Assembly (NCBI GenBank): GCA_003650545.1
Contig: QMQO01000003.1
Span: 15,103 to 79,102 of the forward strand
Length of the DNA stretch: 64,000 nucleotides
Direction: 5' to 3'
DNA from: Candidatus Woesearchaeota archaeon
Lineage (GTDB): Archaea; Nanobdellota; Nanobdellia; Woesearchaeales; B72-G16
The stretch's first letter is position 1, and each line of letters begins with the position of its first letter. Below, in pieces: positions 23,702-59,606 of the stretch. The position numbers were made by a program, and so were the translations under genes. Under the pieces are notes generated by a model. The model did not search any database. It saw nothing but the letters and a program-made list of their open reading frames with translations, and was not told where the DNA came from.

Positions 23702-23854
23702 ATAGTAATAGGGTTATAGTAAATATCAGTTCTGTTTTTTTTTCCGAAAAGTTAGGAAAGGGCAAATTCAATCAAGCATAAAGTGCAATAAATGAAATGA
23801 AGTAAAGGCAGTGCGTTGGTAATATTTATATACCACTTTATAATAATAACTCAT

Positions 23855-25211
23855 ATGAAAGTTCAACTAATACAACCAGCAGTAAATAAAAAATATTCAA
23901 GAATTTTGTCTAGCGGAACCATTCAGCCGATTGGATTAATATCATTAGCTACATTTCTACATAAGAATTTACCAGAAATAGATGTTGAAGTTTTCGATGG
24001 AGAGGTAACACCAGAAGAAGAAATTGAAAAGTGTATTGATGGAGATATAGTTGGTGTAGGTTCCACTTTAGTTACTCATGATAATGCTTTAAGAATTGCA
24101 GAAATTGCTAAGGAAAAAGGTGCTACAACTATCATGGGTGGAAAAAATGCAAGCGTATTGGCTGAAAATATTTTAAGAAACAGACCCTATATTGATTATG
24201 TAATTTCTGGTGATGGGGAACTTGCACTATTAGACTTAGTAAAGGGTATTTCTCCACTTTCAATTCCAGGGGTAATATATCGAACTAATAGTATTCCTGT
24301 TAGAAATGATGAACAATTTGTAGACTTTAGAGAAATTCCATTTCCAAATTTAGATTTTACAGACATGTCGAAATATTTTAAGATTTATAGAGCAAAACAC
24401 CCACACAGGGCACACGATGGCATGATTGGAATATATTCTCAAAAAGGTTGTGAATGGAGAGAAAAAACAAGAGGATGTGATTTTTGTGGTAGACTTGAAT
24501 ATAAAACTCAACAAAAAGATCAAAAGGAATTATGGGAATATTATTCAGCACTTAGGTCTTTATATGGTTCTGATATAATCTTTTTTATATGGTTCTGATA
24601 TAATCTTTTGGGATGTTTGTGATAATGTTACTGGAAATAGAGAATGGTTTGATAGTTTTGCTGCAGAAAAACCATCTGATTTTGATAATGAATTGAAATT
24701 TTACGTTAGAGCTGATAGATTACCACTAGAGGTAGTTAAAGCATTACGAAGGATTGGTACAAGTATTGTTTTTGTTGGTTTTGAAAGTGGAAGTGATGAA
24801 ATATTGCGTGGCATCGGAAAAGGTATAACCACTGAACAGAACTTTCAAGCGTCAAGAAGGCTTGGGCAGGAGGGTATTAAAGTTGAAGCTTCATTTGTAG
24901 TTGGATTACCCGGAGAAACAGAGGAATCTTTGGAAAGAACTTACCAACATGCAAGAGAAATTGCAGATGTCTGTGATGTAGAAATGTGTTTTGCGAATAT
25001 AATAATGCCTGTTCCTGGCTCAAAAATATATGAAAGACTTGTTAATTCGCCGTATGGATCACAATATCGATTATCAGATAACCCTGATCTAGAAGAAATC
25101 ACACGAGCTTATTTGCAAGGATTCACTCACGTTGGTTTTGAAACATTACAGGAATTTGGAAAACGATTAGAACAAGTTGGAAGATTAAGAGGAAGTCATG
25201 GGTATATCTAA
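23855..25211 (+). pseudogene. B12-binding-domain radical SAM gene disrupted by a 25-bp tandem duplication (frameshift)
   Basis: The N-terminal cobalamin-binding-like domain (MKVQLIQPA...PIGLISLATFL...IVGVGS...IMGG) and a Cys cluster (GCEWREKTRGCDFCG) lie in ORF 23816..24598. The radical-SAM core continues in ORF 24693..25211 (VFVGFESGSDEILR...). Deleting one 25-bp copy joins them in frame: ...SLYGSDIIFWDVCDNVTGNREWFDSFAAEKPSDFDNELKFYVRADR.... Confidence 0.75.
24561..24610. repeat. 25-bp tandem duplication inside the radical SAM gene
   Basis: Copy 1 (24561-24585) reads tatatggttctgatataatcttttt and copy 2 (24586-24610) reads tatatggttctgatataatcttttg. The 25 extra bases shift the frame by +1 and create a TGA at 24596-24598. 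Confidence 0.9.
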
Positions 25212-58681: not shown

Positions 58682-58875
58682 TTCTAGGAAGCAGGAACAG
58701 TAAATAAACTTAAATAGAAAGTAGATGAGTGTAGATGAGTCTATTGTAAAAACTATATAAAATCTGTAACATTGAGGTGAAATTTTCAAGCTGATGTGAA
58801 ATGTTTTGGTTTTACTCATCTAGTTGAGATGTAAACGAAATGTTTAAAAATGAGTTCTAAATTTGGTTGATATAT

Positions 58876-59082
58876 GGGAACGTAGCTCAGCCTGGGAGAG
58901 CACTAGACTGAAGATACCAGACTGACTGGAAAAGATCTGATGAGGCTTAGCCAATGATTATCAGAGATCTAGGTGAATGGTGCAACAAAAGTGCATCGTG
59001 GTGCATCGTCCTGAATCCGGGGTTCAAACTGGCAGAAGCTGTTGAAAGTCAAGCTTCTTTCACGAAAATCCCCGCGTTCCCA
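58876..59082 (+). tRNA. tRNA-Phe (anticodon GAA) with three intervening sequences
   Basis: Exon segments read by eye. First: GGGAACG-UA-GCUC-AGCCUGGGA-GAGC-A-CUAGA-CUGAAG (58876-58913). Second: AUCUAG (58967-58972). Third: about 5 nt of variable loop somewhere within 58973-59017. Fourth: CGGGG-UUCAAA (59018-59028). Fifth: U-CCCCG-CGUUCCC-A (59069-59082). The acceptor (7 bp), D, anticodon (5 bp) and T (5 bp, G53-C61) stems all pair perfectly. No CCA is encoded. Confidence 0.85.
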
Positions 59083-59147
59083 TTCATAAATTTTGTTGAA
59101 TCCCGTCAAAAAATTCAGAAATAATCAAACTGATAAAATTTAATTTA

Positions 59148-59606
59148 TCATTCTTCCTCTAGCTTAACATCCTCTTCATTGACTTCAGGTTCTTCTTCTA
59201 ATCCCAGCTCCTCTTTCTTGGTTGGTATTGTTGGGCCAACATCTTCCTCTGTCTTTCCATTTAAAAGATCTGATTCTAGTCTTTCGTCCCCTGTAAGGAT
59301 TTGCTCACCTTCATCTGTTTTGCCAATAACTTCCATGCTTCCATACTTCCCTGCTGATAATTGCATCTCTCCTTGAAACTCTGAGACATAACCATTCTTA
59401 ATGTGAATTGTATCACCCACATTAACTCTATCAATATCTTCATTCCACAAGGTCAGCTTAATCTCGCCTGTTTGGTCCTTGATTTTAGCATTACAAACGC
59501 GGCCTTTTTGACCGAATTTCTCAAACTCTCGCACTTCTCCTTTCTCAATAACCTCAGCTATGAGGTCAACTTTGCCTTGTTTTGGATATAGGTCTTTGAT
59601 TGCCAT
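59148..59606 (-). CDS. OB-fold single-stranded DNA-binding protein (SSB/RPA-like) with acidic C-terminal tail
   Basis: GKVDLIAEVIEKGEVREFEKFGQKGRVCNAKIKDQTGEIKLTLWNEDIDRVNVGDTIHIKNGYV is a typical archaeal OB fold. The C-terminus is Glu-rich. Confidence 0.7.
   Translation of the reverse strand: MAIKDLYPKQGKVDLIAEVIEKGEVREFEKFGQKGRVCNAKIKDQTGEIKLTLWNEDIDRVNVGDTIHIKNGYVSEFQGEMQLSAGKYGSMEVIGKTDEGEQILTGDERLESDLLNGKTEEDVGPTIPTKKEELGLEEEPEVNEEDVKLEEE

Follow-up and report, generated by a model that had tools for sequence, protein, structure and literature searches.

A predicted three-intron tRNA-Phe(GAA) gene in a Woesearchaeota archaeon, and orthologues with zero to five predicted introns

Can a stretch of DNA in which standard detectors see no transfer RNA (tRNA) be a working tRNA gene that is cut into four exons? 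The question is raised by 207 bases on the forward (+) strand of a 64,000-nucleotide (nt) stretch of contig QMQO01000003.1 (positions 15,103 to 79,102; assembly GCA_003650545.1) from a Candidatus Woesearchaeota archaeon of the DPANN superphylum. That whole 64-kb stretch is called the window here, and coordinates are counted from its first letter. An initial annotation of the window proposed that positions 58876-59082 hold a tRNA-Phe(GAA) of about 74 nt, spread over 207 bp, with stems that are complete only when three inserts are taken out. The sequence of the locus, read again, matches that description, and ARAGORN calls tRNA-Phe(GAA) at 58876-59082 once the three inserts are deleted. Judged from sequence, the locus is very probably (about 0.88) a functional tRNA-Phe(GAA) gene of this archaeon in four exons, and the analyses below support its interruption by introns of the bulge-helix-bulge (BHB) type, one at 37/38, one in the variable region and one within the T loop. 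The predicted gene and its flanking signals are laid out as follows; H denotes the central helix of a BHB motif, h its outer helix and h' its inner helix.

58836-58850, + strand: putative archaeal promoter, cgaaa followed by a TATA-like TTTAAA (58843-58848, at -33 to -28 from tRNA nucleotide 1)
58876-58913, + strand: exon 1, tRNA nucleotides 1-37 (acceptor 5' strand, D arm, anticodon stem 5' strand, C32 U33 G34 A35 A36 G37)
58914-58966, + strand: intron 1, 53 nt, site 37/38; H CUGA/UCAG with 4 of 4 pairs, h the 5-bp anticodon stem, h' of 2 bp; full hBHBh' motif
58967-58975, + strand: exon 2, nucleotides 38-46 (A38, anticodon stem 3' strand UCUAG, G44 U45 G46)
58976-59015, + strand: intron 2, 40 nt, site 46/47; H of exon UAGG (41-44) and intron CCUG with 4 of 4 pairs, no h, h' of 8 bp; relaxed HBh' motif
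59016-59028, + strand: exon 3 (U47 C48, T stem 5' strand CGGGG, U54 U55 C56 A57 A58 A59)
59029-59068, + strand: intron 3, 40 nt, site 59/60 in the T loop; H UUC(A)/(C)GAA with 3 of 4 pairs and an A57.C mismatch, h the 5-bp T stem; relaxed motif
59069-59082, + strand: exon 4 (U60, T stem 3' strand CCCCG, acceptor 3' strand CGUUCCC, A73)
59091-59097, + strand: oligo-T tract ttttgtt, 9 nt past the gene, a likely archaeal transcription stop

Removal of 58914-58966, 58976-59015 and 59029-59068 leaves a mature product of 74 nt, GGGAACGUAGCUCAGCCUGGGAGAGCACUAGACUGAAGAUCUAGGUGUCCGGGGUUCAAAUCCCCGCGUUCCCA, in which a strict cloverleaf template finds 21 of 21 stem pairs, the anticodon loop CUGAAGA and the T loop UUCAAAU. 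The identity elements of tRNA-Phe are G20, G34 A35 A36 and A73; all are present in the window gene, where A73 is the discriminator and CCA is absent from the gene sequence. A split or permuted tRNA gene of the Nanoarchaeum or Caldivirga type was considered and rejected because the four exons are colinear on one strand within 207 nt. ARAGORN, run by default, with its -i intron option and with a relaxed score, reports no tRNA anywhere in the 64-kb window, nor does Rfam at its gathering threshold, and an Rfam search of 58700-59300 at E<=10 returns no tRNA and only weak, chance-level small nucleolar RNA (snoRNA) and hammerhead matches. This silence of the standard detectors is what would be expected of a decayed pseudogene, in which an old tRNA-Phe gene, broken by three unrelated insertions, is no longer expressed or spliced. 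Decay does not readily account for four exons that remain intact, with every stem pair formed and canonical loops.

In archaeal pre-tRNAs the BHB motif consists of a 4-bp central helix and two flanking 3-nt bulges, each cut after its second nucleotide, with an outer helix on one side and an inner helix on the other. The initial annotation held that the locus would be a decayed relic if no BHB-like motif could be formed at two or more of the junctions; a motif forms at all three, complete (hBHBh') at junction 1 and relaxed at junctions 2 and 3. Its exact coordinates for the 53-nt insert at 37/38 are borne out, as are those of the 40-nt T-loop insert. It had left the ends of the middle insert, of about 40 nt within 58973-59017, ambiguous; that insert is real and its register can now be fixed at 58976-59015, between G46 and U47, the only register that gives both a BHB and a 5-nt variable loop like that of the orthologues (GUGUC). 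The bulges of intron 2 are UG|A and AA|U and its 8-bp inner helix is AUGGUGCA/UGCAUCGU. Intron 3 lies between A59 and U60, where runs of A permit a slippage of 1-3 nt that leaves the product unchanged; a BHB-like fit occurs at shift 0 only. Its inner helix has 3 bp, a C.U mismatch and then 7 bp (AGAAGCU at 59034-59040 with AGCUUCU at 59052-59058), and the gaagct/agcttc hairpin noticed earlier lies within this 7-bp stem.

Two features of the inserts could be read as marks of decay, namely the mismatch in the central helix of intron 3 and a recent-looking tandem duplication in intron 2. The duplication, first noticed as a gtgcatcgtN repeat, is found by Tandem Repeats Finder at 58991-59009 with a period of 10 nt and 1.9 copies; it sits on the hairpin loop side of the intron and spares the BHB-proximal helix. 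In addition, every insert lies in a BHB that shuffled sequence seldom matches (P<=0.014). With the splice sites fixed by the cloverleaf and 100,000 shuffles per intron, the BHB motif score gives P ~0.004-0.014 for intron 1, <1e-5 for intron 2 and ~4e-5 for intron 3 when one mismatch is permitted in h'. A blind scan reaches the same coordinates. All strong BHB-like candidates in the 16 kb of intergenic window DNA, on both strands, were deleted in every combination of up to three, and ARAGORN was run on the resulting 614,513 sequences. tRNA calls are confined to the 58876-59082 locus; one of them is a 76-nt, three-junction tRNA-Phe solution whose coordinates are identical to those of the cloverleaf-derived introns. 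The scan found no other hidden tRNA with three or fewer strong BHB introns in the intergenic DNA of the window.

BHB geometry in all three inserts also bears on the idea that one or more of them is a self-splicing group I or group II intron, or another mobile element, rather than a substrate of the splicing endonuclease EndA. Archaeal group I introns are reported in a paper that also mentions Woesearchaeota (PMC6125680), which gives this idea some footing. The inserts, at 40-53 nt, are too short for a ribozyme, for which hundreds of nucleotides would be expected, and no Rfam intron family matches the locus at E<=10. No additional copy of the window introns occurs elsewhere in the window or among the 91 loci examined for comparison (L001-L091, ~0.55 Mb). 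We regard this explanation as having next to no probability.

Other Woesearchaeota, relatives with ~50% protein identity, also have a tRNA-Phe directly beyond their FlaJ-like gene; there it is on the strand opposite to the FlaJ-like gene, so that the two converge, whereas in the window it is inverted and on the same strand. Mature tRNA-Phe was aligned, by a spliced dynamic program with multiple references, to 80 metagenomic loci with a FlaJ alignment. Orthologue junctions are computational: they were refined by BHB score under the cloverleaf template, and the products were checked with ARAGORN. The result is a set of 47 distinct genes (46 from relatives plus the window gene), all of which give tRNA-Phe(GAA) by ARAGORN after splicing and in all of which exon sequence and structure are strictly conserved (47/47). 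Predicted introns number from zero to five per gene: 3 genes have none, 12 have one, 11 have two, 12 have three, 7 have four and 2 have five. With intron handling off, ARAGORN detects just 10 tRNA genes in the whole of L001-L091 (Ala, Gly and three intact Phe), so that standard annotation misses most of the ~45 tRNA-Phe genes of these loci. As the tRNA-Ala and tRNA-Gly genes are intact, interruption does not extend to all tRNAs of these organisms.

Introns of the 47 genes occupy about ten sites overall (3/4, 13/14, 18/19, 20/21, 27/28, 37/38, 44-46/47, 52/53, 59/60 and perhaps 63/64). Site 37/38 is used in 24 genes, 59/60 in 23, 46/47 in 13, 25-27/28 in 12, 20/21 in 10, 18/19 and 3/4 in 9 each and 13/14 in 5; three further sites are singletons, with one gene each. 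All three sites of the window gene therefore recur in orthologues, and one of these (L083) has the identical trio. Five BHB introns, at 3/4, 18/19, 27/28, 46/47 and 59/60, are predicted in L012 (4848-5071, - strand) and in L068 (4014-4238, - strand), and the seven genes with four introns are those of L020, L021, L023/L026, L065, L071, L074 and L081; after intron removal, genes with four or five introns have 21 of 21 cloverleaf pairs and an ARAGORN tRNA-Phe call. L041 (2957-3096) and L068 provide an informative pair: their mature tRNAs are identical, as are their 3/4 introns, and their upstream leaders are near-identical, but their intron sets differ, with introns at 3/4, 37/38 and 46/47 in the former and the five listed above in the latter, and their 46/47 introns are unrelated in sequence. 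This contrast suggests recent intron gain, loss or replacement.

The acceptor-stem intron at 3/4 needs separate comment because first exons of 3-4 nt are easily placed by chance. Its placement is supported by a conserved intron hairpin and by a shared leader. In nine loci (L012, L039, L041, L047, L048, L066, L068, L074 and L075) the intron is 29-31 nt long, has a conserved sequence (AUUUGAUAAG...) and forms a 9-10-bp hairpin. Genes with this intron share the 5' leader UGRGC, predicted by RNAalifold to base-pair with the D-arm sequence GCUCA, and their TATA-like box, where the pattern detects one, lies ~10 nt further upstream.

Compensatory change in the orthologous introns indicates whether the motifs are maintained as RNA structure. 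For the 46/47 class (13 introns), RNAalifold predicts the BHB exactly from the sequences alone, with H, the 3-nt bulges and h', and changes on both sides occur in 6 of its 8 pairs; the intron strand of H follows the exon, with UAGG facing CCUG or CCUA and GUGG facing CCAC. For the 59/60 class (20 introns), H is formed by exon UUCA with intron UGAA, UGAG or CGAA and is paired in 90% of cells. Here the exon side is invariant, so that only one-sided changes can occur; covariation is seen in the T stem. Across this class 95.6% of cells are paired, a share that falls to 81% on shuffling and to 31-63% if the partner is slid. These values come from an explicit count of the central helix, as RNAalifold on a MAFFT alignment of these introns, which are of unequal length, gave the T stem only. 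The A57.C mismatch of window intron 3 is found in L068 too. The BHB of intron 2, the T stem and the internal hairpin of intron 1 all show covariation, and the anticodon stem does so less strongly.

Flanking signals are conserved along with the exons. A TT[TA]AA[AT] box peaks at -33 to -30 upstream of the 47 orthologous genes, the window gene included, and is often preceded by cGAAAg; its role as a promoter is presumed. A run of at least four T follows within 11 nt downstream in ~35 of the 47 genes. Conserved sites, compensatory changes and flanking signals together point to an expressed, selected gene rather than a relic. In particular, occupation of the same three sites in orthologues that are ~50% diverged at the protein level, with compensatory changes, and conservation of the TATA-like box are hard to reconcile with a broken gene, and we consider a decayed pseudogene very unlikely.

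How would such a gene be expressed? The primary transcript would be ~207 nt long, starting downstream of the TATA-like box at -33 and ending near the oligo-T tract. Folding would place each exon-intron boundary, at 37/38, 46/47 and 59/60, in a BHB motif; EndA would then cleave two nucleotides into each 3-nt bulge, at six sites in total, an RtcB-type ligase would join the exons and CCA would be added later. The central helix of intron 2 uses nucleotides 41-44, which are needed by the outer helix of intron 1 (the anticodon stem), so the two motifs are mutually exclusive and splicing is expected to be stepwise, with introns 1 and 2 removed in sequence and refolding in between. Stepwise removal has likewise been described for other multi-intron tRNAs (PMC8450103; PMC3728597). 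The motifs of introns 2 and 3 can coexist in one fold. The predicted precursor has a minimum free energy (MFE) of -68.6 kcal/mol (z = -2.8); in its MFE fold the acceptor stem and the inner helix of intron 3 are formed, as is most of the T stem. Intron 2 folds there into a hairpin that draws on the other copy of the 10-nt repeat and is therefore not in the BHB register; enforcing the BHBs of introns 2 and 3 together costs ~6 kcal/mol.

Several points weigh against a functional gene with three BHB introns. The intron 1 BHB is absent from the predicted MFE structure, where an intron-internal helix competes with it at a cost of ~+12 kcal/mol. The central helix of intron 3 is only 3/4 paired and intron 2 is without an outer helix; these relaxed motifs would need an endonuclease that accepts them. 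Anchored pair statistics lean toward BHB in all intron classes since junctions were refined by BHB score, although the RNAalifold result for the 46/47 class is free of this bias. Transcription, cleavage, ligation and splicing order of the window gene are all inferred from sequence. Finally, the window covers only 64 kb of the genome, which leaves room for an uninterrupted tRNA-Phe(GAA) elsewhere that supplies most of the cell's needs; the locus would then be a real, spliceable but redundant copy that serves as a tolerated landing pad for introns, and the range of 0-5 introns among relatives could reflect relaxed constraint. Strict exon conservation in 47 genes argues instead for purifying selection, there is no second tRNA-Phe in the window or in the loci examined, and small DPANN genomes usually have single-copy tRNA genes. 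A redundant copy is thus improbable, if less so than a pseudogene, and a functional gene in four exons remains the preferred interpretation.

The endonuclease that such introns would require can be approached through the relatives. Within the window, there is no tRNA_int_endo or RtcB match among the 50 of 52 open reading frames (ORFs) scanned against Pfam (the other two are glycyl-tRNA synthetase (GlyRS) and aspartate kinase by annotation), and tblastn with EndA finds nothing there. A Woesearchaeota locus (L002, 7911-8402, + strand) encodes a 163-aa single-unit EndA that aligns end to end with the EndA of M. jannaschii (PDB 1A79), retains the catalytic Tyr, His and Lys and has no internal insertion. 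Nearly all of 83 EndA homologues are 152-225 aa long, with one of 269 aa, and almost all have PF02778 and PF01974. In eleven of these that were aligned with the M. jannaschii enzyme, the catalytic triad Tyr115, His125 and Lys156 is invariant, and none has an internal insertion; the homologues differ in length mainly through Lys-rich N-terminal tails of up to ~55 aa. None of the 83 homologues has the locus-tag prefix of the metagenome-assembled genome (MAG) of the window or is otherwise assignable to it, and a second subunit may exist. The TACK enzyme is an (alpha-beta)2 EndA with a Crenarchaea-specific loop (PMC5829648), whereas EndA of the Woesearchaeal relatives is a plain single unit without internal insertion relative to that of M. 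jannaschii.

Intron 1 contains a further element, which resembles a kink-turn (k-turn).

58934-58962, + strand: k-turn-like module in intron 1, GAUC-U-GAUGA / hairpin GGC-UUA-GCC / AAU-GA-UUAUC

A k-turn consists of a helix, a 3-nt bulge, tandem G.A/A.G pairs and a second helix. By our own reading, the sequence of the module appears to match the kink-turn consensus in a C'/D'-like arrangement. An xUGA-hairpin-RAUGA pattern is matched in 11 of 25 distinct canonical introns of orthologues, and slight variants are visible by eye in three more (L023, L071 and L074); the homologous introns that have the module are those of L019, L020, L023, L024, L027, L032, L043, L058, L065, L071, L074 and L075. 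Its hairpin covaries (GGC/GCC, GCC/GGC, GCAAA/UUUGC and GCU/AGC), and RNAalifold on 12 aligned introns recovers it with compensatory changes; UGA and AAUGA on either side of it stay unpaired and are conserved. In L065, where the intron is 81 nt long, the additional sequence sits inside the module hairpin. The internal helix that competes with the intron 1 BHB is part of this module; it overlaps a strand of the BHB central helix, so that the two folds are mutually exclusive.

It is conceivable, although doubtful, that the module binds L7Ae and thereby either switches the fold away from the BHB conformer or serves as a C'/D'-like guide that directs 2'-O-methylation to nucleotide 39. Of the 11 matched introns, 9 (including those of L024, L027 and L058) have a nucleotide five positions upstream of the xUGA box that pairs with nucleotide 39; these introns are homologous and hence not independent. 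In window intron 1, the automated register search chose another target and the nucleotide-39 register was obtained only by hand, with a 4-bp duplex (6 bp in the spliced RNA). Thermodynamic folding of this intron gives a plain helix with a 5-nt bulge rather than a k-turn. Against a k-turn guide are a guide-target duplex of only 4-6 bp and a single k-turn-like motif per intron, with no C/D plus C'/D' pair. Box C/D methylation guides are recognized here by two box pairs, complementarity of ~8 nt or more and a target 5 nt upstream of box D/D'; the canonical tRNA-Phe introns fall short in both the two box pairs and the ~8-nt guide, and a full box C/D RNA in intron 1 was rejected for its single k-turn-like motif and short guide. 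The euryarchaeal pre-tRNA-Trp intron holds a box C/D guide for Cm34 and Um39 (Clouet d'Orval et al. 2001, cited in PMC2584109). Like intron 1 of the window gene, with its putative k-turn, it lies at the canonical position and carries a k-turn-type element, and nucleotide 39 is methylated there. The window intron differs in having one k-turn-like motif and 4-6 bp of complementarity, in belonging to tRNA-Phe rather than tRNA-Trp, and in that no L7Ae, Nop5 or fibrillarin gene is seen in the window. The likeness is a lead rather than a sign of membership.

Multi-intron BHB tRNAs are already known, and the window gene, with three introns, equals the maximum that reviews and the tRNAscan-SE 2.0 paper state for an archaeal tRNA gene, such cases being concentrated in Thermoproteales (PMC4033280; PMC8450103). 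Thermoproteales (e.g., Pyrobaculum calidifontis) and Thaumarchaeota likewise combine canonical and non-canonical BHB introns in one tRNA gene, with relaxed motifs and with mutually exclusive motifs that are removed stepwise. The window host differs from these in being an AT-rich DPANN Woesearchaeote and not a TACK archaeon. Nuclear tRNA genes of Cyanidioschyzon merolae have up to three BHB introns, in the D arm, at 37/38 and in the T loop, with ordered removal demonstrated by reverse transcription polymerase chain reaction (PMC3728597); this is a eukaryotic system that is unrelated by descent to the window locus. The initial annotation regarded a gene of this kind as unusual outside Thermoproteales, which is only partly true. 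DPANN had already been flagged for disrupted tRNA genes: Kaneta et al. 2018 (PMC5829648) included one Woesearchaeota and one Pacearchaeota genome in their survey, reported increased tRNA disruption in DPANN and, where the tRNA set of a DPANN or Asgard genome was incomplete, took this to imply unidentified disrupted genes. The disrupted tRNA genes of ARMAN-1/2, with an epsilon2 EndA, and those of the Kaneta set belong to the same superphylum as the window host. The main text of that paper contains no gene-level description of Woesearchaeota, no three-intron tRNA-Phe and neither site conservation nor a 0-5 series, and a literature search on tRNA introns or BHB motifs in Woesearchaeota and DPANN found nothing more specific. 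Orthologues of the window gene reach four to five predicted introns and thus exceed the published limit of three, as far as the literature found shows, which may be new; the conserved k-turn-like module in the canonical tRNA-Phe intron may also be new.

These observations allow a broader but tentative proposal, to which we give somewhat less than even odds: the window gene could be one case of lineage-wide tRNA fragmentation. Under this proposal, syntenic tRNA-Phe genes would carry 0-5 BHB introns at ~10 sites, with turnover between identical mature tRNAs, and would be processed by a simple single-unit EndA that lacks the specificity loops thought necessary for relaxed motifs, with an added step, based on the k-turn, of L7Ae-dependent folding or of guiding 2'-O-methylation at nucleotide 39 (Nm39).

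The gene has practical as well as evolutionary implications. Both ARAGORN and the Rfam tRNA model miss it, so a genome with such a gene would be scored as being without tRNA-Phe. Intron-dense tRNA genes are now detailed beyond the thermophilic TACK lineages that defined the phenomenon, in a DPANN archaeon that is small and AT-rich. The 47-gene series, with the same exons, 0-5 introns, recurrent sites and differing introns, is a natural experiment on the gain, loss and replacement of BHB introns and can test whether endonuclease architecture limits intron placement. If genes with four and five introns are confirmed at the RNA level, the upper limit of introns per tRNA gene rises.

The gene lies in a window with a guanine-plus-cytosine content of 33.6%, among neighbouring ORFs that are archaeal. 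Upstream neighbours are a VirB11/FlaI-type ATPase and a 724-aa FlaJ-like membrane protein; downstream are an OB-fold protein resembling single-stranded-DNA-binding protein (SSB-like), an archaeal/eukaryotic-type GlyRS and aspartate kinase. Elsewhere in the window are a family B DNA polymerase, L10e, a TGT-family tRNA-guanine transglycosylase, a RIO kinase and PAC2. In NCBI the FlaJ-like protein has an identical counterpart, 'hypothetical protein DRJ17_01395 [Candidatus Woesearchaeota archaeon]'. An identical contig in Logan SRR6823441 (L007) is the sole match to the neighbouring genes above ~54% identity, and the next relatives have 49-54% protein identity; with no match between ~54% and identity, no near relative was available for fine-scale comparison. 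Loci gathered by GlyRS (L001-L003, from GTDB genomes with 51-54% identity) have no tRNA-Phe nearby, and GlyRS synteny was unhelpful. In L010 (6154-7823), tRNA-Phe is followed directly by GlyRS, whereas in the window the OB-fold SSB-like gene (59148-59606) lies between them.

Other sequence features of the window are of minor interest. A B12-binding radical SAM gene (within 23816-25211, + strand) is split into ORFs 23816-24598 and 24693-25211 by a frameshift, caused by an exact 25-nt tandem duplication at 24559-24609 (+ strand) with two copies of TTTATATGGTTCTGATATAATCTTT. A BHB intron at 24.6 kb was considered for the split and rejected because the split is this exact duplication. A pseudogene, a recent mutation or an assembly artefact may each account for it. 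A weak snoRNA-like Rfam match at chance level (E 0.78) overlaps 58783-58850. The spacer between the FlaJ-like gene and the putative tRNA promoter contains GTAGATGAGT twice in tandem (58721-58740). About 75 nt further downstream lies an inverted partner of this repeat (58814-58823), in which nine bases, ACTCATCTA (58814-58822), complement TAGATGAGT exactly.

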